DNA of 64,000 nt from Patescibacteria group bacterium (GTDB taxonomy: Bacteria; Patescibacteriota; Patescibacteriia; Patescibacteriales; GWC2-42-12): NCBI GenBank assembly GCA_028707005.1, contig JAQTVB010000001.1, forward strand, positions 755 to 64,754, given 5' to 3'. Position 1 is the first letter of the stretch. Each line of letters begins with the position of its first letter. The notes below the pieces were generated by a model. The model made no database searches. It worked only from the letters and a program-made list of their open reading frames with translations, and was not told the origin of the DNA. Shown piece by piece: positions 2,813 to 60,314 of the stretch. The position numbers and the translations under genes are program-made.

Positions 2813-3145
2813 TTAATCTATCGCTTGCTTGCATTTTTTACAAACCCTTACTTTTTTCTTATGTTTAACTTCATTTTTCACGACTTCTATATATTTATAG
2901 CCTACTCTGGTCGGCCGATCGCAGGCTTTGCAAACCAAGATGACATTTGATAAGTCCAGGGGCGCGGGAAATTCAATTCTCTGCCCTTTCTCGCCCTGCT
3001 TCCTCGGGCGCATATGCTTAATCAAAAGATTCAAGCCTTCAATCGAAGCCCGGTTGCCTAAGGGAAAAACTTGCAAAACTTTGCCGGTCTTGCCCTTGTC
3101 TTTGCCTGCTAATATTTTTACTTTGTCTCCCTTCTTTATCTTCAT
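2813..3145 (-). CDS. rplX: 50S ribosomal protein L24 with C-terminal Cys4 (CxxC...CxxC) extension
   Basis: MKIKKGDKVKILAGKDKGKTGKV KOW-domain start; C-terminal CKACDRP...CKKCKQ. Confidence 0.9.
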   Translation of the reverse strand: MKIKKGDKVKILAGKDKGKTGKVLQVFPLGNRASIEGLNLLIKHMRPRKQGEKGQRIEFPAPLDLSNVILVCKACDRPTRVGYKYIEVVKNEVKHKKKVRVCKKCKQAID

Positions 3146-3168
3146 ATAATTCTTAATTGATAATTGAC

Positions 3169-3540
3169 TTATAGCACCTCCGGCGCCAGCGAAGCAATCT
3201 TGGCAAAACCCAACTGCTTTAATTCGCGCGCCACCGGGCCGAAAATTCTTGTGCCTTTAGGATCTTTTTTATCTTTTTCAATAATAACGCAAGCGTTATC
3301 GTCAAAACGTAAATACGCGCCGTCAGAACGCCTGATTTCTTTTTTGGTTCTGATGATTACTGCCTGCGCAATGTCTCCGTCTTTAATCGCGGTATGCGGT
3401 TCAGCTTCTTTAATTACTACGGTAATAATCTCCCCGACGCTGGCATATCGTTTTTTGTAACCGCCTTGAATTCTAATGCACATCGCTCTTTTAGCGCCAG
3501 TATTATCAGCAACTTTTAATATTGTTTGTACCTGTATCAT
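3169..3540 (-). CDS. rplN: 50S ribosomal protein L14
   Basis: [27 protein letters not shown] is highly conserved L14 sequence. Confidence 0.95.
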
Positions 3541-3571
3541 ACCTTAATTTCAAATTTAAAATTTAAAATTC

Positions 3572-3862
3572 TTAATATATCATGCGCCAGCGCTTTTCTT
3601 TGCTTAACGGGCGGCATTCAACAAACCGCACTTTATCGCCGACTTTATATTGATTCTTCTCGTCATGAACTTTGAACTTCCTGCTTACTTTAAACCGTTT
3701 ATGGTATTTCGGATATATTCTGGCGGTTTCAACCGCGACCACTCTGGTTTTATCCATTTTATCGCCTATAACCACGCCGCTAAACTTGCGTTTAATGACT
3801 TGGCGCTTAGCTGGCTGGCTATTTTGACTTTGTTCTACCATATTTATTATATTAATTTTCAA
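3572..3862 (-). CDS. rpsQ: 30S ribosomal protein S17
   Basis: KRQVIKRKFSGVVIGDKMDKTRVVAVE...KVGDKVRFVECRPLSKEKRW S17 OB-fold pattern. Confidence 0.9.
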   Translation of the reverse strand: MKINIINMVEQSQNSQPAKRQVIKRKFSGVVIGDKMDKTRVVAVETARIYPKYHKRFKVSRKFKVHDEKNQYKVGDKVRFVECRPLSKEKRWRMIY

Positions 3863-3869
3863 TGGAAAA

Positions 3870-4061
3870 TTATTTTTTATTCTTATGATTTATTAATGTT
3901 AAAATCCGTGCAATTGTCCTTTTTATCACCCTAATCTCTCTAACATCTTTCAGCTGCTTATTAGCATCCTTAAAGCGCAAATCTCTCAATTTGTCGCGAG
4001 ATTCGTCCAAGATTTTCCTCAATTCTTTTTCGGTTTTAAGTTTTAATTCTTTTAAATCCAT
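3870..4061 (-). CDS. rpmC: 50S ribosomal protein L29 (start at MDLKELKLKTEKELRK; ORF extends to 4091 overlapping rplP)
   Basis: Small K/E/R-rich helical protein between rplP and rpsQ; L29-like. Confidence 0.8.
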   Translation of the reverse strand: MDLKELKLKTEKELRKILDESRDKLRDLRFKDANKQLKDVREIRVIKRTIARILTLINHKNKK

Positions 4062-4069
4062 ATAATATT

Positions 4070-4474
4070 TTATTTCTTGATGTATTTGCAATTAACCGGC
4101 AACTTATAAGCGGCCATCTTCATGGCTTCCTTGGCTTCTGGTTCGCTGATGCCGGCTATTTCAAACATTATCATGCCGGGTTTAACCACGGCGACATAAT
4201 GGTCAACCGCGCCCTTGCCTTTACCCATGGGAATTTCTCCGCCCTTAACCGTCACTGATTTATCCGGGAAAATTCTGATCCAAAGCCTGCCGCCTTTGCT
4301 GATATATCTGGTTAAAACTTTTCTGGCTGCTTCAATCTGCCGGGAGGTTACCCAGTAAGCGCCCAAACTCTTTAGGCCGTAATCGCCAAAGCTCAACTTA
4401 ATCATCTGCGAGGCTTTGCCTCCCCTTTTACGCTTATGCGACTTTCTCCATTTTGTTTTTTTTGGCATCAACAT
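4070..4474 (-). CDS. rplP: 50S ribosomal protein L16
   Basis: MLMPKKTKWRKSHKRKRGG...RQIEAARKVLTRYI L16 hallmark. Confidence 0.95.
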   Translation of the reverse strand: MLMPKKTKWRKSHKRKRGGKASQMIKLSFGDYGLKSLGAYWVTSRQIEAARKVLTRYISKGGRLWIRIFPDKSVTVKGGEIPMGKGKGAVDHYVAVVKPGMIMFEIAGISEPEAKEAMKMAAYKLPVNCKYIKK

Positions 4475-5255: not shown

Positions 5256-5342
5256 AGATTCAATTACAAATTATCAATTATCAATTACGAATTAAGGAAT
5301 TTATAATTTTTAATTCGTAATTTTTAATTTTTAATTGATTTA

Positions 5343-5939
5343 TTATCCGCTCTTTCTCCTAAACATCTTCCCCACAAACCCCTTGCTGCCGCCTTCTATC
5401 CTGGCGTGGCCGCGGCGTCCTTCCATCCTCGGATCGGTAATTACTTTGCCTTCTTCTTTGGTTTCAATGTTCTTTTCTTTCTTGTCTTTTTTGGCCGGTT
5501 CTTTGATTTCAACGGCCGGTTCTTTTTTGGGCTTGGTTTCAAGCTTAATCGGCGAGGCCAAAACCTGCTTTTTCGCAGCCACCTTGCCCGAAGGCTTAAT
5601 CTCATCTAAAACCAAGTAAATATGACTGGTCCGTTTTCTGATGGGTGTTGCTCGTCCGTGCGCTCTGGGCATCCAGCGCTTCAAAGTCGGACCCTGGCCG
5701 ATGGTTATTTCTTTTATGAATAAATTATCTTTAACCAATTCAAAATTGTGCTCGGCGTTCGCCATGGCTGATTTTATGAGCTTAGCTACCGGCCCGGCGG
5801 CCAATTTATCTATAAATTGCAACTGGTCCAGCGCTTTGACTACCGGCATTTTTTTTATCAAATTAGCCACCAGTCTTATCTTGGTCGGCGACATTTTGAT
5901 AAATTTTAATTTCGCTTTTACTTCCATAAATAGATTCAA
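5343..5939 (-). CDS. rplV: 50S ribosomal protein L22 with ~80 aa K/E-rich C-terminal extension
   Basis: KAKLKFIKMSPTKIRLVANLIKKMPVVKALDQLQF L22 core; extension KPKKEPAVEIKEPAKKDKKEKN. Confidence 0.9.
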   Translation of the reverse strand: MNLFMEVKAKLKFIKMSPTKIRLVANLIKKMPVVKALDQLQFIDKLAAGPVAKLIKSAMANAEHNFELVKDNLFIKEITIGQGPTLKRWMPRAHGRATPIRKRTSHIYLVLDEIKPSGKVAAKKQVLASPIKLETKPKKEPAVEIKEPAKKDKKEKNIETKEEGKVITDPRMEGRRGHARIEGGSKGFVGKMFRRKSG

Positions 5940-11090: not shown

Positions 11091-12278
11091 TTATTTAATA
11101 ATCTTAGTGACTACTCCAGCGCCCACGGTTTTGCCGCCTTCGCGAATAGCGAATCTCATCTTTTCTTCCAGAGCTACTTGGGCGATTAATTTAATCTTTA
11201 AATTAACCGTATCGCCGGGCATGACCATTTCCGTGCCGGCCGGCAATTCAACTTCGCCGGTGACATCGGTGGTGCGGATATAGAATTGCGGCTTATAGCC
11301 TTTGAAAAACGGCTTGTGGCGGCCGCCTTCTTCTTTGGTTAAGACGAAAACTTCGCCTTCAAATTCAGAATGAGGATGAACCGTGCCCGGTTTGGCCAAA
11401 ACCTGGCCTCTTTCCACTTCATCTTTTTTGGTGCCGCGTAAAAGCAAACCGGCGTTATCGCCAGCTTGGCCCTGATCCAATGATTTATTGAACATTTCAA
11501 TGCCGGTGATAACGGTCTTTTGCGTATCCCTTAAACCGATAATTTCCACTTCATCGTTTAATTTGATGGTGCCTCTCTCAATTCTGCCGGTCACGACTGT
11601 GCCGCGGCCTTCAATTGAGAAAATGTCTTCAACCGGCATCAAGAACGGCTTATCGGTTTCGCGCTTGGGTTCGGGGATATATTCATCCAAGGCTTTGGCC
11701 AAATCCAAAATGGCTTTGCCGTATTCCCCGTCCGGACTTTCCAGCGCCTTTAAAGCGCTGCCGCGGATAATCGGCGTGGTGTCGCCCGGGAATTCGTATT
11801 TCTTTAATAAATCGCGGATTTCTTCCTCAACCAAGTCAATTAATTCTTTATCTTCCACCATATCGCACTTGTTCAAGAAGACAATAATGTATGGTACGCC
11901 GACCTGTCTGGCCAAAAGAATGTGCTCTCTGGTTTGGGGCATGGGTCCGTCAGCGGCGGAAACCACTAAAATGGCTCCGTCCATTTGCGCCGCGCCGGTG
12001 ATCATGTTTTTAACATAGTCAGCATGGCCCGGGCAGTCCACGTGCGCATAGTGCCTTTTTTCAGTTTCATACTCAACGTGGCAAGTGGCGATAGTAATAC
12101 CGCGCGCCTTTTCTTCCGGCGCCGAGTCAATCTGGTCAACGCTTTTTTGGGTAGCCTTAAAACCCTTGTGATGCAATACCGTAAGCATTGCCGCGGTCAA
12201 GGTTGTTTTGCCATGATCCACATGGCCGATGGTTCCCACGTTAACATGGGGTTTTGAGCGATCAAATTTTTCTGCCAT
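11091..12278 (-). CDS. tuf: Elongation factor Tu
   Basis: [27 protein letters not shown] GTPase motifs; 395 aa. Confidence 0.98.
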
Positions 12279-12310
12279 ATTATATTGTCTTAACGGCCCC
12301 CAACATCACC

Positions 12311-12339
12311 TTGTCATTCCCGCGAAAGCGGGAATCCAG
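12311..12339. repeat. Partial copy of the MITE-like repeat (ttgtcattcccgcgaaagcgggaatccag)
   Basis: Identical 29-mer to the left end of element 12581-12700. Confidence 0.6.
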
Positions 12340-12420
12340 AAATTTTGGGGTTATCGCCCGATAATTTAAAAGGTGGGCGTCCAACCGTCTATAATTAATT
12401 TTATTATGAATTTTATTAAG

Positions 12421-12449
12421 GACACGATACGACAAGCTTGCATCGTGTT
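12421..12449 (-). terminator. Hairpin (cacgatgcaagcttgtcgtatcgtg) plus AT-rich tail immediately 3' of the tRNA-like element
   Basis: Inverted repeat read directly. Confidence 0.4.
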
Positions 12450-12527
12450 TGGAGCCCCCGATTGGAATCGAACCAATTACCTCGACCTCTTGCGAGGCCG
12501 CAGTCTAGCCATGTGACTTACGGGGGC
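12450..12527 (-). ncRNA. 78-nt tRNA-like element. It has a 7-bp acceptor stem, U8, D-arm with G18G19, T-arm GGTTCGATTCC, discriminator and encoded CCA. The anticodon arm is replaced by a 6-bp stem capped by a GCAA tetraloop (GGCCTC-GCAA-GAGGTC); no 7-nt anticodon loop can be folded.
   Basis: Manual folding of GCCCCCGTAAGTCACATGGCTAGACTGCGGCCTCGCAAGAGGTCGAGGTAATTGGTTCGATTCCAATCGGGGGCTCCA. Confidence 0.45.
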
Positions 12528-12580
12528 GCCAAAAATTTTAAAAGTACATCTCCTTAACGAAATGCACAATCCTTATTTCT

Positions 12581-12700
12581 TTGTCATTCCCGCGAAAGCG
12601 GGAATCCAGGAGGGAGCGGCAGGAATGCGGCCGTTATGATAACATGTTCATGCCTCGCTCTCCTGGATTCCCGACAGCCTGCGGCTTCGGGAATGACAAC
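12581..12700. mobile_element. Full-length 120-bp MITE-like element: TIR ttgtcattcccg / cgggaatgacaa, internal hairpins (tcccgcgaaagcggga; ccaggagag...ctctcctgg)
   Basis: Perfect 12-bp terminal inverted repeats; member of dispersed family. Confidence 0.6.
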
Positions 12701-12706
12701 ATATAA

Positions 12707-13114
12707 TTAAAACGCCAAATCTTCCAGATACTGCCGGTCTTCTTCAATAATTTCTTCGGCGTTAACCTTTCTCTTTGGCGGAATTGACCAGCTTTTATTA
12801 AATTTTCTTATCATTTTCTCCCGCGCTTCTTCTTTATCTTCTTTAACCGGCAGCTCGGAAAAATAATCCAGGCTGGTGTCAAAATCTTTATCTTCAACTT
12901 GTTCGCTTTTCCAGATGGCAATATCGCGATTTATTTTATCAAGTAGCTCATCTTCTGTCAAGCCCCTAACCTCGCTTTTGCCTAAAACCAAGTTTTCATA
13001 ATCTTTCACCGACATGATTACAAAAGCGTTGTCCGGCTTGGAGCTGTCGAAAACAATTAATTTATCGCCGGTTTTTTTTACCAAATTAATCGCTTTTTGC
13101 AATTGATCCTGCAT
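12707..13114 (-). CDS. Hypothetical acidic protein (135 aa)
   Basis: Uninterrupted ORF with typical codon usage; no recognisable motif. Confidence 0.5.
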   Translation of the reverse strand: MQDQLQKAINLVKKTGDKLIVFDSSKPDNAFVIMSVKDYENLVLGKSEVRGLTEDELLDKINRDIAIWKSEQVEDKDFDTSLDYFSELPVKEDKEEAREKMIRKFNKSWSIPPKRKVNAEEIIEEDRQYLEDLAF

Positions 13115-13292: not shown

Positions 13293-15374
13293 CTATTTTT
13301 TCTCTTTTTCCCCGATAATCTCTTCCGCCACGTTTCTCGGCACTTCGGCGTAATAGCCGAATTCCATGGTATAGCTGGCGCGGCCCTGGGTCATTGATCT
13401 GATCTGGGTGGCGTAACCGAACATTTCCGACAGCGGCACTTTTGCTTTGATGAATTTAACTACGCCGCGATCACCCATTTCTTCAATCTGCGCCCGTTTG
13501 GAATTCAGGTCGCCGATAACTTCGCCCATGAACTCCTCCGGGGTAACGGTTTCAACTTTCATAATCGGCTCTAAAATTACGGGCGAGGCGTGCTTGGCGG
13601 CGTCCTGGAAAGCCAGGGAGCCGGCGATTTTAAAAGCGGCTTCCGAAGAATCAACTTCATGGAAAGAGCCGTCAAAAACCGCGGCCTTGACATCCACGAT
13701 CGGATAGCCGGCTAGAATGCCCCGGCTCAAAGCTTCTTTCACGCCTTTTTCAATCGCCGGAATAAATTCGCGAGGAATTACGCCGCCTTTTACTTCATCA
13801 ATAAACTCAAAGCCCTTGCCCGTTTCATTGGGTTCAACTCTTAACCAGCAGTGGCCGTATTGGCCATGGCCGCCCGACTGCCTGATATATTTTCCTTCGG
13901 CTTCGGCTGATTTTTTGACGGTTTCGCGATAAGCTACCTGCGGCTTGCCCACGTTAGCTTCCACTTTAAACTCGCGCCTCATCCGGTCAACAATAATATC
14001 CAAATGAAGCTCGCCCATGCCGCCGATAATCGTCTGCATGGTTTCTTCGTCGCTTCTCACGCTAAAGGTTGGGTCCTCCTCCGCCAATTTAGCCAAAGCC
14101 ATACCCATTTTTTCCTGATCAGCTTTGGTTTTGGGCTCAATGGCAATATGAATAACCGGTTCGGGAAAGACAATTGACTCTAAAACCACCGGCCGAGTTT
14201 CCACGCATAAAGTATTGCCCGTGGTCGTGCCTTTCAAGCCGATTACCGCCGCGATTTCACCGGCGTAGACTTCCTGGACTTCTTCCCGGTGATTGGCGTG
14301 CATTCTTACGATGCGGCCGATTCTCTCTTTCTTGCCGGTAGAAGTATTTAAAACATAGGAACCGGAATTTAAAACGCCACTGTAAACTCTGATAAAACAA
14401 AGCTTGCCCACGTAAGGATCGGTGGCGATTTTAAAAGCCAAGGCCGCGAACGGCTCCGCGTCCGACGGCTTGACTTCAACAATTTTTTCTTTATCATCCG
14501 GATCAAAACCGGTGATAGCCGGCACATCTAACGGCGACGGCAAATAATCAACCACGCCGTCCAAAACGGCCTGGACGCCCTTATTCTTCAAAGCGCTGCC
14601 GCAAAAAACCGGCACGATTTTATTATGTATCACCGCTTGGCGCAAAACCTTTTTCAAATCTTCAATTTTAATTTCTTCGCCGGCTAAATATTTATTCATT
14701 AAAACTTCGTCATTTTCGGCAATCGCTTCAACCAGTTTGGCCCGAAAGTCTTCCACTTTTTCTTTCATCTCGGCCGGCACCTCTCTATCTTCCCATTTCG
14801 TGCCCAAGTCGTCTAAAAAAAACCGCGCTTTTCTTTCCAATAAATCTATCATGCCCTTAAACTGGTCTTCGGCGCCGATCGGCAACTGCACCGGATAGGC
14901 ATGTTTAGTAAGCCTTTTATGGATTGATTCCAAGTCTTTATAAAAATCGGCTCCGGTGCGGTCCATTTTATTGATAAAAGCCAGGCGCGGCACTTTGTAT
15001 TTGTCCGCCTGATGCCAAACGGTTTCCGATTGCGGCTCAACGCCGGCCACGCCGTCAAAGACGACCACGCCGCCATCCAAGACGCGCAATGAACGCTCCA
15101 CTTCGGCGGTAAAATCCACATGGCCAGGAGTGTCAATCAGGTTGATGCGGCAGTCTTTCCAAAAGCAAGTCGTGGCCGCGGAAGTAATAGTGATGCCGCG
15201 CTCGCGCTCCTGCTCCATCCAATCCAAATCGGTTGAACCTTCATGCACTTCGCCGATCTTATGTTTTTTGCCGGTATAAAAAAGAATCCGCTCGCTGGTA
15301 GTGGTCTTGCCGGCGTCAATATGCGCGATCACGCCGATATTCCTGGTTTTTTCCAAACTATATTCTCGGGGCAT
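13293..15374 (-). CDS. fusA: Elongation factor G
   Basis: [33 protein letters not shown]; 693 aa. Confidence 0.98.
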
Positions 15375-21175: not shown

Positions 21176-21249
21176 TGGTCGGGGTGCGCGGAATCGGACC
21201 GCGGCTACAAGCACCCCATGCTCGCGTACTGCCACTATACGACACCCCG
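21176..21249 (-). tRNA. tRNA-Pro (anticodon GGG), 74 nt with encoded CCA, C1:G72 pair, G37
   Basis: Manual cloverleaf: CGGGGTG acceptor, D stem GTAT/GTAC, anticodon stem CGAGC/GCTTG with loop AUGGGGU, T arm CGCGG-TCCGATT-CCGCG, ACCA. The overlapping ORF 20975..21259 is spurious. Confidence 0.85.
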
Positions 21250-60015: not shown

Positions 60016-60306
60016 TCTCTGGTTAGAAACGCTTTACATGTCTAGCGCTAAATATCTTTGTTTTCCTTGTTTTTATACTGGTCGTTTCTGTTTAACAGAT
60101 TATCGGTTACTCCAACGTAAAATACATTATGCGATTTATTAGTGTTTATGTATACAAAATAGTATTTCTCATAAATCATATTCGTTCTAACTTACCAGAG
60201 ATTGCCGCGTCGTCGCTAACGCTCCTCCTCGCAATGACATACAAGAAAAGATTGTCGTATCATCCAACCTCGGTTGTTTTAACTAGGGCTGGCTTCGGGA
60301 ATGACA
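59975..60306. mobile_element. Composite MITE-like element in the spacer between the two giant genes: ttgtcattgcgagga ... tcctcgcaatgacat inverted termini, AT-rich 230-bp core, extra half-site cgggaatgacaa
   Basis: Inverted repeats at 59975-59989 and 60224-60240; family similarity. Confidence 0.5.
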
Positions 60307-60314
60307 AAAATGGT

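Follow-up and report, generated by a model that had tools for sequence, protein, structure and literature searches.

The 64,000-nt stretch of Patescibacteria group bacterium DNA analyzed here (assembly GCA_028707005.1, contig JAQTVB010000001.1, positions 755 to 64,754 of the forward strand; hereafter the window) carries a 78-nt tRNA-like gene inside the str operon, directly upstream of tuf, the gene for EF-Tu, and on the same strand, a context absent from the preliminary description of this DNA. The reading we favor, with about even confidence, is that the gene is a non-decoding element of tRNA origin that is co-transcribed with tuf and has been retained for its fold, probably as a module for RNase P or 3'-end processing. 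Across the family of cassettes to which it belongs the fold and the flanks appear constrained and the anticodon does not, and the family therefore has the signature of a structural tRNA-like element and not that of a decoder or of long-dead DNA. Below, W denotes the source genome's own copy, whose coordinates are window positions, and L-numbers denote the loci compared with it.

Read 5' to 3' from the minus strand, the RNA is GCCCCCG-UA-AGUC-ACAUGGCUA-GACU-G-CGGCC-UCGCAAGA-GGUCG-AGGUA-AUUGG-UUCGAUU-CCAAU-CGGGGGC-U-CCA. It forms a 7/4/5/5-bp cloverleaf with all 21 of its 21 pairs, and the features listed for it earlier are all present in the sequence: the 7-bp acceptor stem, U8, a D-arm with G18G19, the T-arm GGUUCGAUUCC with a loop (UUCGAUU) that fits UUCRANY, the discriminator (U73) and an encoded CCA. 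In geometry the RNA is a class I tRNA plus exactly one extra nucleotide, placed in the anticodon loop; by eye, the 15:48 Levitt pair is non-canonical (C15/A48). The 78-nt RNA folds at -35.7 kcal/mol (z = -4.0, 200 shuffles), and determinants of the RNase P type are present in the 7 + 5 perfect acceptor and T-arm pairs, the UUCGAUU loop and the 3' UCCA.

Several checks had been proposed along with the preliminary description. ARAGORN made two tRNA-type calls in the window, an ordinary tRNA-Pro(GGG) at 21176-21249 and the present element, as a tRNA-??? with the 4-base "anticodon" gcaa on the minus strand, a strand not given before. In Rfam the top clan match of the W body was tRNA-Sec at 22.6 bits, so that its score on the tRNA model (RF00005, gathering score 29) can be no higher, while the tRNA-Pro of the window, scanned as a short region in the same way, reached 48.1 bits on the tRNA model. 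A gathering-mode Rfam scan of the whole window gave zero matches and missed even tRNA-Pro, a filter artifact that short-region scans do not share. ARAGORN found no tmRNA in the window, Rfam gave no tmRNA match, and neither a tag open reading frame (ORF) nor pseudoknots were seen. The search for homologous loci found cassettes at the same site in three other lineages, and the tRNA-like bodies of these score 56.9, 43.5 and 32.5 bits on RF00005, which supports a tRNA origin for the element.

The anticodon arm of W departs from that of a canonical decoding tRNA. The 8-nt loop UCGCAAGA has C in place of U33, and the two outermost nucleotides at either end are complementary to those at the other, so that the arm can zip up to a 7-bp stem, CGGCCUC/GAGGUCG with one G.U, closed by a GCAA tetraloop. 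Both extra pairs are predicted with a probability of 0.999 (ViennaRNA), and zipping stabilizes the cloverleaf by 5.7 kcal/mol relative to an open 8-nt loop. Among random 8-mers, just 0.44% fit the pattern N1N2-GNRA-N2'N1'. The GCAA closure had been recognized before on a 6-bp stem; the closure holds, on a stem that is longer by one pair. A decoding tRNA has a 7-nt anticodon loop with U33 and a purine at position 37, and an expanded-loop tRNA has an open 8-nt loop with U33; W has neither, and the earlier view that no usable anticodon loop is present agrees with these results.

To place W among its relatives, spacers between tuf and ORF135, an uncharacterized gene upstream of it, were gathered independently of their tRNA content from EF-Tu neighbors, from a GTDB-wide scan with an ORF135 alignment (17 loci) and from the ORF135 neighbors of W; more than 25 related loci were looked at. 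An NCBI "Patescibacteria group bacterium" protein matches the EF-Tu of the window at 100% identity, with Falkowbacteria also in the match list; exact-protein look-ups of the window's ORF135 and EF-Tu found neither on record. The cassette occurs at the homologous site in four lineages only, namely W, L002 (the same as L010, assembly GCA_964560005.1), L017 (the same as L022 and L023, Falkowbacteria RIFCSPLOWO2_12_FULL_45_13) and L021 (the same as L177 and L178). In each it consists of a 5' box, a linker, a tRNA-like body ending in CCA, a hairpin and a 3' box, and the boxes and hairpin are near-identical across lineages.

The bodies themselves have diverged widely, with identities of 50-68% among the four lineages. 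The 4-fold-degenerate sites of tuf are just 52-62% identical between carriers, so neutral sites are near saturation. Nevertheless, in a hand-made alignment of the four sequences 94% of stem cells are paired, as opposed to 31-50% in slid-partner controls, and 13 of the 21 pairs have changes on both sides, values reached by none of 500 shuffles. No change is seen among the four bodies in U8, A14, the T-loop, G53-C61 or CCA, pairing in the T arm is 100%, and three of them retain G18G19. Compensatory substitutions, spread over all four stems, appear to have preserved the L-shape. The anticodon loops, by comparison, are UCGCAAGA, CUUUCAG, CCAUUA and CUCGGGA, of 8, 7, 6 and 7 nt, and the sister lineages L021 and L017 share an anticodon stem (AAG../CGCUU) around entirely different loops. 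The discriminator (U, U, A, G) and the 1:72 position (G-C, G-C, U-A, A.A) also vary.

Each homologous body has peculiarities of its own. L002, which ARAGORN calls tRNA-Glu(UUC), has either a bulged U in its acceptor stem or a C1.C72 mismatch; L021, called tRNA-Pro(CGG), has three stem mismatches; and L017, for which there is no call, has a 6-nt anticodon loop, two acceptor mismatches and no G18G19. Judged by E. coli identity rules, the "Glu" and "Pro" bodies do not match their anticodons. Decoding tRNAs would share an anticodon and have near-identical orthologues, and the four cassettes do neither. As for a pseudogene, a tRNA origin and a disabling lesion are both found, while the absence of structural constraint that would go with them is contradicted by the four hand-aligned sequences.

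The flanks of the body are better conserved than the body. The 5' box has the form GATTG(Y)G(M)ATTTCGTTAAGGA, of which the 13 nt ATTTCGTTAAGGA (12563-12551 in W) are invariant in all four cassette lineages. Among the other clade loci fetched it was present in L002/L010, L017/L022/L023 and L021 only; a metagenome scan added L021 as the only new locus, together with duplicates of L017, the other 9 matches being chance occurrences in coding DNA, and a scan of viral sequences gave one match, also by chance. The linker is about 23 nt long in the cassettes, and in the minimum free energy (MFE) structure of the whole cassette its terminal UUGG is able to pair with CCAA at the 3' end. The hairpin that follows CCA has its stems at 12448-12442 and 12428-12422 in W and one compensatory pair in L002, where by eye A-U is replaced by G-C. 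This hairpin had been described as the element's own terminator; the hairpin is there, but its tail, CCUUAAUAAAA, has no U tract and the terminator scan was silent on this strand. The 3' box has the family form (U)CCUUAAYAAAA, 11 of its 12 positions are complementary to UUUCGUUAAGGA of the 5' box, and the helix formed by the two boxes appears in the MFE structures of the L002, L017 and L021 cassettes (3 of 4). The 3' box varies by wobble-compatible substitutions, namely A to G opposite U and U to C opposite G.

Two other functions considered for the boxes were not borne out. As a sigma-70 promoter (TTGTGC-17-TACTTT) the 5' box received no call in the promoter scan, its invariant 13 nt would be the spacer, and the corresponding -10 elements of L017 (TTCTTT) and L021 (TCCTTT) both lack A2, which makes such a promoter doubtful. 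The 3' box is also a poor candidate for an anti-Shine-Dalgarno sequence of tuf, to which the ribosome-binding regions of the cassette carriers are insufficiently complementary.

On the minus strand the gene order is rpsL, rpsG, fusA (13293-15374), ORF135, a miniature inverted-repeat transposable element (MITE) of 119 bp, the tRNA-like gene, the tuf leader, tuf and rpsJ. A predicted TG-extended sigma-70-type promoter, matching the consensus at 11 of 12 positions, lies within the coding sequence of ORF135 (G-L-T-E-D...L-D-K-I-N) and is directed at the cassette and tuf. Its hexamers are frozen even at synonymous third positions in 20 of 20 relatives, except that one of them has a single altered third position in its -35 hexamer, while the neighboring codons vary; this is probably the tuf promoter of the clade. 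A scan of the minus strand from this promoter to tuf gave no terminator-like site. Given the promoter upstream in ORF135 and no terminator before tuf, the tRNA-like gene is most likely part of the 5' untranslated region (UTR) of tuf and co-transcribed with it.

Between the cassette and tuf lies a structured leader. In most relatives the ORF135-tuf spacer is 90-180 bp long and consists of this leader alone. The leader, followed across L001-L020, is found in nearly all relatives examined and is absent from L016. In RNAalifold its closing helix, ACGGY/GCCGU, is invariant and its apical hairpin, CCCCG/CGGGG, covaries between CG and UA. The leader also contains a conserved GGGCAAA motif and has no match in Rfam.

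These observations can be combined in the following scenario. An ancestral tRNA gene directly upstream of tuf, in the ancestor of a small Falkowbacteria-like clade of Patescibacteria, would have lost its decoding role. Transcription would start at the promoter inside ORF135 and continue across MITE, cassette and tuf leader. In the transcript, RNase P would recognize the 5' end of the tRNA-shaped module, and tRNA 3'-end nucleases its 3' side, following CCA. Excision would shorten a long 5' UTR and leave a tuf mRNA that begins at the conserved hairpin, which may act as a 5' stabilizer. Processing would need only the top half formed by acceptor and T-arm, the CCA and the overall fold, so any tRNA-shaped body would suffice and the anticodon would be irrelevant or even counter-selected; in W, the GNRA-capped closure may render the released RNA inert for decoding. 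Bacterial RNase P recognizes the acceptor/T-arm stack together with RCCA and also cuts non-tRNA substrates including operon mRNAs (review PMC11143913), and in plant mitochondria tRNA-like t-elements define mRNA ends (Forner 2007, as cited in PMC5009733). Of the regulatory or primer RNA of tRNA origin and the tRNA mimic that had been suggested for this locus, the tRNA origin stands, and a non-decoding structural or regulatory role is favored since the element is tRNA-derived, has no usable anticodon loop and belongs to a family that keeps the fold while leaving the anticodon free; a primer role is unsupported because there is no reverse transcriptase nearby.

A number of observations weigh against this scenario. 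The relatives nearest to W, whether by EF-Tu (L001, 95%; L034, 94%) or by ORF135 (L170-L176, 85-88%), all lack the cassette; as its closest relatives L001, L034, L170, L176, L004 and L005 manage with the leader alone, the cassette appears dispensable and often lost. Carriers are scattered over the ORF135 tree, and together with the empty sites in the nearest relatives of W this implies that the cassette was lost repeatedly or moved by recombination. The MFE structure of W does not use the helix between the two boxes, and this helix is without true covariation support because the 5' box never varies. L017 and L021 have two acceptor-stem mismatches each, which would weaken recognition by RNase P. 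The alignment of the four bodies was adjusted manually to match the cloverleaf, and its pair counts are inflated as a result. Apart from the identity between L021 and L017 (68%), and perhaps that between W and L021 (59%), the body identities are by our own estimate presumably not above those of unrelated tRNAs, and the covariation may thus partly reflect replacement by different tRNA bodies. Finally, we infer both the co-transcription and the cleavage.

The main rival is a plain tRNA pseudogene, a possibility we consider less probable than a processing module. Under this explanation a redundant accessory tRNA is being lost, W was inactivated recently, and the flanks are kept because they overlap expression signals of tuf. 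The patchy distribution, with the cassette completely deleted in most relatives, would then be expected, as would a different disabling lesion in each lineage (in W the 8-nt loop, the missing U33 and the non-canonical 15:48 pair) and the fall of RF00005 scores from 57 to below 23 bits across the four. Long-dead DNA would not, however, be expected to keep 94% of its stem cells paired, 13 compensatory pairs and an invariant T-loop, U8, A14 and CCA when neutral sites are nearly saturated, nor W all 21 of its 21 pairs. The two extra pairs and the GNRA tetraloop in the loop of W, for which the prior is 0.4%, look more like selection for a closed stem, and L021 and L017 have retained their anticodon stem despite entirely different loops. 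These points lead us to prefer the non-decoding element kept for its fold. A bolder form of that reading, that the cassette is a dedicated bacterial "t-element", anticodon-free and selected for excision, seems to us rather unlikely as a whole. It would couple EF-Tu synthesis to tRNA-processing capacity or allow EF-Tu itself to sense it, the GNRA arm would prevent decoding, and certain phage genes with zipped anticodon arms (see below) would be independent examples. The family, which is small, shows the signature expected of a tRNA-shaped RNA retained for its fold, with stems, T-loop, CCA and flanks kept and the anticodon free or closed, in the leader of a gene that is among the most highly expressed.

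The remaining explanations appear less probable still. A trans-acting tRNA-like RNA released from the tuf leader, be it an EF-Tu-binding feedback element, a decoy for anticodon nucleases or an aminoacyl carrier, is unlikely in our estimation. The intact top half, the CCA and G1-C72, C2-G71, C3-G70 and U73 would in principle allow charging and binding by EF-Tu, the position directly in front of tuf would suit it, a nuclease-resistant tetraloop replaces the anticodon, and the same zipped UCGNAAGA arm recurs in rare phage tRNA-like genes (L048, L152, L154 and L157). On the other hand, the acceptor stem and the discriminator are unconserved among the four lineages, which leaves no common aminoacylation identity; the element is dispensable in most relatives; there is no partner gene nearby; and control scans of viral contigs were without clear enrichment of zipped over unzipped loops. 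It is more improbable again that W is a working decoder with an 8-nt loop, reading quadruplets or +1 frameshifts or acting as an odd tRNA-Cys(GCA)-like species. ARAGORN does model a 4-base anticodon, GCAA, and GCA with U73 are identity elements of tRNA-Cys in E. coli. tRNAs with 8-nt loops exist as well, for example yeast mitochondrial tRNA-Thr (PMC3113583; PMC7609411). Yet W has no U33, its loop is predicted to be closed (p 0.999), its 15:48 pair is non-canonical and its Rfam score is below gathering, while its loop and anticodon occur in no relative and its closest relatives do without the gene. The suggestion that the locus is a remnant attachment site, with a tRNA gene as integration target and MITE copies marking the junctions, is effectively refuted by the comparison of loci. 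The tRNA-like gene does lie between the copies of an exact 29-nt direct repeat spaced 270 bp apart, but this repeat is the end of a MITE and not part of the tRNA, so the repeats are not att-like tRNA duplications; one copy lies within the complete 119-bp MITE, and the other, in the leader loop, is also present in L002, which has no upstream MITE. Neither an integrase nor cargo lies between the repeats, no island is seen, the neighbors are the core genes fusA, ORF135, tuf and rpsJ, and the hairpin itself is promiscuous, with 95 matches in IMG/VR.

Table 1. Positions in the window of the tRNA-like cassette and of the features around it.
Feature	Coordinates	Strand	Evidence
tRNA-like body, 78 nt, CCA encoded	12450..12527	-	ARAGORN, sequence, fold z, Rfam sub-threshold
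Anticodon arm, 18 nt, formally 5 bp + 8-nt loop UCGCAAGA	12483..12500	-	MFE, pair probabilities
Linker/5' leader, 5' box to tRNA-like 5' end	12528..12550	-	whole-cassette MFE, sequence
Conserved 5' box GATTGTGCA-TTTCGTTAAGGA	12551..12571	-	alignment; single copy in window
Hairpin ACACGAU/AUCGUGU, two nt after CCA	12422..12448	-	sequence; conserved
Conserved 3' box UCCUUAAUAAAA	12411..12422	-	alignment; cassette MFE
Structured tuf 5' leader AGACGGYUGG ... GGCCGU	12279..12390	-	conserved; RNAalifold
tuf (EF-Tu), downstream of cassette	11091..12278	-	Pfam GTP_EFTU, D2 and D3 domains
ORF135, uncharacterized protein, promoter inside	12707..13114	-	sequence, homologues
Sigma-70-type promoter TTGACA-17-TAAAAT, TG-extended	12933..12961	-	11/12 consensus match; predicted
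Complete MITE, 119 bp, 12-nt terminal inverted repeats TTGTCATTCCCG/CGGGAATGACAA	12581..12699	.	repeat search
Solo MITE-end hairpin, exact 29-nt copy of 12581-12609	12311..12339	.	repeat search

The MITE copies noted on both sides of the gene were confirmed by a repeat search, as an exact 29-nt repeat shared by the solo hairpin and the start of a full element that ends at 12699. The full element lies between the ORF135 stop and the cassette, with perfect terminal inverted repeats and a long internal palindrome, and no target-site duplication was identified for it. A homologous MITE occupies the same upstream place in L021, and a homologous element is also present in L023. The solo hairpin is inserted in the apical loop of the covarying tuf-leader hairpin; insertions in this loop are also found in L002 (3978-4008) and, as a longer copy, in L023 (6517-6619), and are absent from L001, L004 and others. 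With MITE ends or whole MITEs sitting there in three lineages, the apical loop of the leader evidently accommodates insertions. The annotated EF-Tu of L002 has a spurious N-terminal extension of 12 codons that stems from the insert. Exact matches to the 25-nt hairpin GTCATTCCCGCGAAAGCGGGAATCC number 95 in the viral contigs of IMG/VR (including L050-L129), often several per contig, and the hairpin can therefore be regarded as a promiscuous repeat; it resembles part of the Rfam family FtrB. Elsewhere in the window, at 60297-60307, an exact match to the MITE terminus GGGAATGACAA lies amid repeats of the CAATGACA type and may be a degenerate MITE copy.

The spacer between ORF135 and tuf is an insertion hot spot more generally. 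L011 carries a 1.4-kb insert (2905-4421) with small ORFs and a duplicated start of the tuf leader, small ORFs also occupy the spacers of L004 (2917-3384) and L005 (2917 onwards), and the spacers of L003 and L007 have extra hairpins. ORF135 encodes a protein of about 135 amino acids with at least 500 homologues and lies between fusA and tuf in every relative examined. A family search with it returned a weak Phd/YefM-like match at the N terminus only, and NCBIfam returned nothing.

Closed anticodon arms were also looked for in phage sequences, where UCGCAAGA and UCGAAAGA gave 13 matches each. Six of the GAAA matches were the 3' ends of tmRNAs and several others were coding; clean cloverleaves were four only (L048, L152, L154 and L157). 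These phage genes share the architecture of W, with UCG(A/C)AAGA closing an anticodon-arm stem of 5-7 bp; they include L154 at 654-731, L152 at 5314-5390 and L048 at about 2226-2303. One of them, L154, lies in a 250-kb contig beside amber-suppressor tRNAs, two tRNA(CUA) genes at 754-904. A 2x2 control with zipped and unzipped flanks in viral contigs gave 5 matches versus 3, 2 and 2, with no enrichment of tRNA-like genes. As the controls reveal no convincing enrichment, there is no solid evidence for a general phage class with tetraloop-closed anticodon arms.

Organelles, viruses and eukaryotic nuclei provide well-documented cases of tRNA-shaped RNAs that are retained for their fold and do not decode; to our knowledge few come from bacterial chromosomes. 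Literature searches turned up neither Patescibacteria tRNA-like genes nor anticodon arms capped by a tetraloop. If processing occurs as proposed, the cassette would show in a simple natural form how a tRNA shape can punctuate a bacterial mRNA, and would be a case study of a redundant tRNA gene that was exapted and not simply lost. If W is merely a dying pseudogene, its importance is small. For annotation, "tRNA-???" calls in metagenome-assembled genomes of Patescibacteria should not be counted as decoders.

The closest known arrangement is that of the E. coli thrU-tyrU-glyT-thrT-tufB operon, in which tRNA genes are co-transcribed with tufB. As there, tuf is directly preceded on its own strand by a tRNA-shaped gene; the predicted promoter upstream is probably common to both, no terminator is predicted in between, and processing would release the tuf mRNA. 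Unlike in E. coli, a single non-decoding element is found in an operon of the str type (fusA-ORF135-tuf-rpsJ) and its co-transcription is predicted; it is accompanied by conserved 5' and 3' boxes and a 3' hairpin, and it is present in 4 of more than 25 related lineages. We propose by analogy that the element may correspond functionally to the E. coli tRNA-tufB logic reduced to a non-decoding "t-element". With tRNA pseudogenes it has in common a tRNA origin, a sub-threshold Rfam score, lineage-specific lesions and frequent deletion, and it differs from them in the compensatory upkeep of stems, the invariant tertiary nucleotides and CCA, and in that no pair is broken in W.

Anticodon-less mimics of tRNA include the tRNA-like domain of tmRNA, the bacterial Y RNA YrlA and mascRNA. 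In these, as in W, an acceptor/T-arm and a D-arm mimic tRNA without a functional anticodon, whereas W has neither the tag ORF and pseudoknots of tmRNA nor a Ro-binding stem or an rsr neighbor, and its genomic context is another. The class I body and the 18-nt anticodon arm are shared with expanded-loop tRNAs such as frameshift suppressors and yeast mitochondrial tRNA-Thr(UAG) (PMC3113583), but those keep U33 and an open loop, while the 8 nt of W are self-complementary around a GNRA tetraloop. Plant-mitochondrial t-elements likewise combine a non-decoding tRNA-like fold beside an mRNA with an acceptor/T-arm mimic usable by RNase P and RNase Z (as described in PMC5009733), and RNase P cleaves bacterial operon mRNAs (Li & Altman 2003, as reported in PMC11143913). 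Those substrates are organellar or weak mimics, whereas the element here has a complete cloverleaf with CCA in a bacterial genome of free-living type, and its processing is predicted. The element thus adds to kinds already known, those of tRNA-tuf operons, t-elements and tRNA relics.

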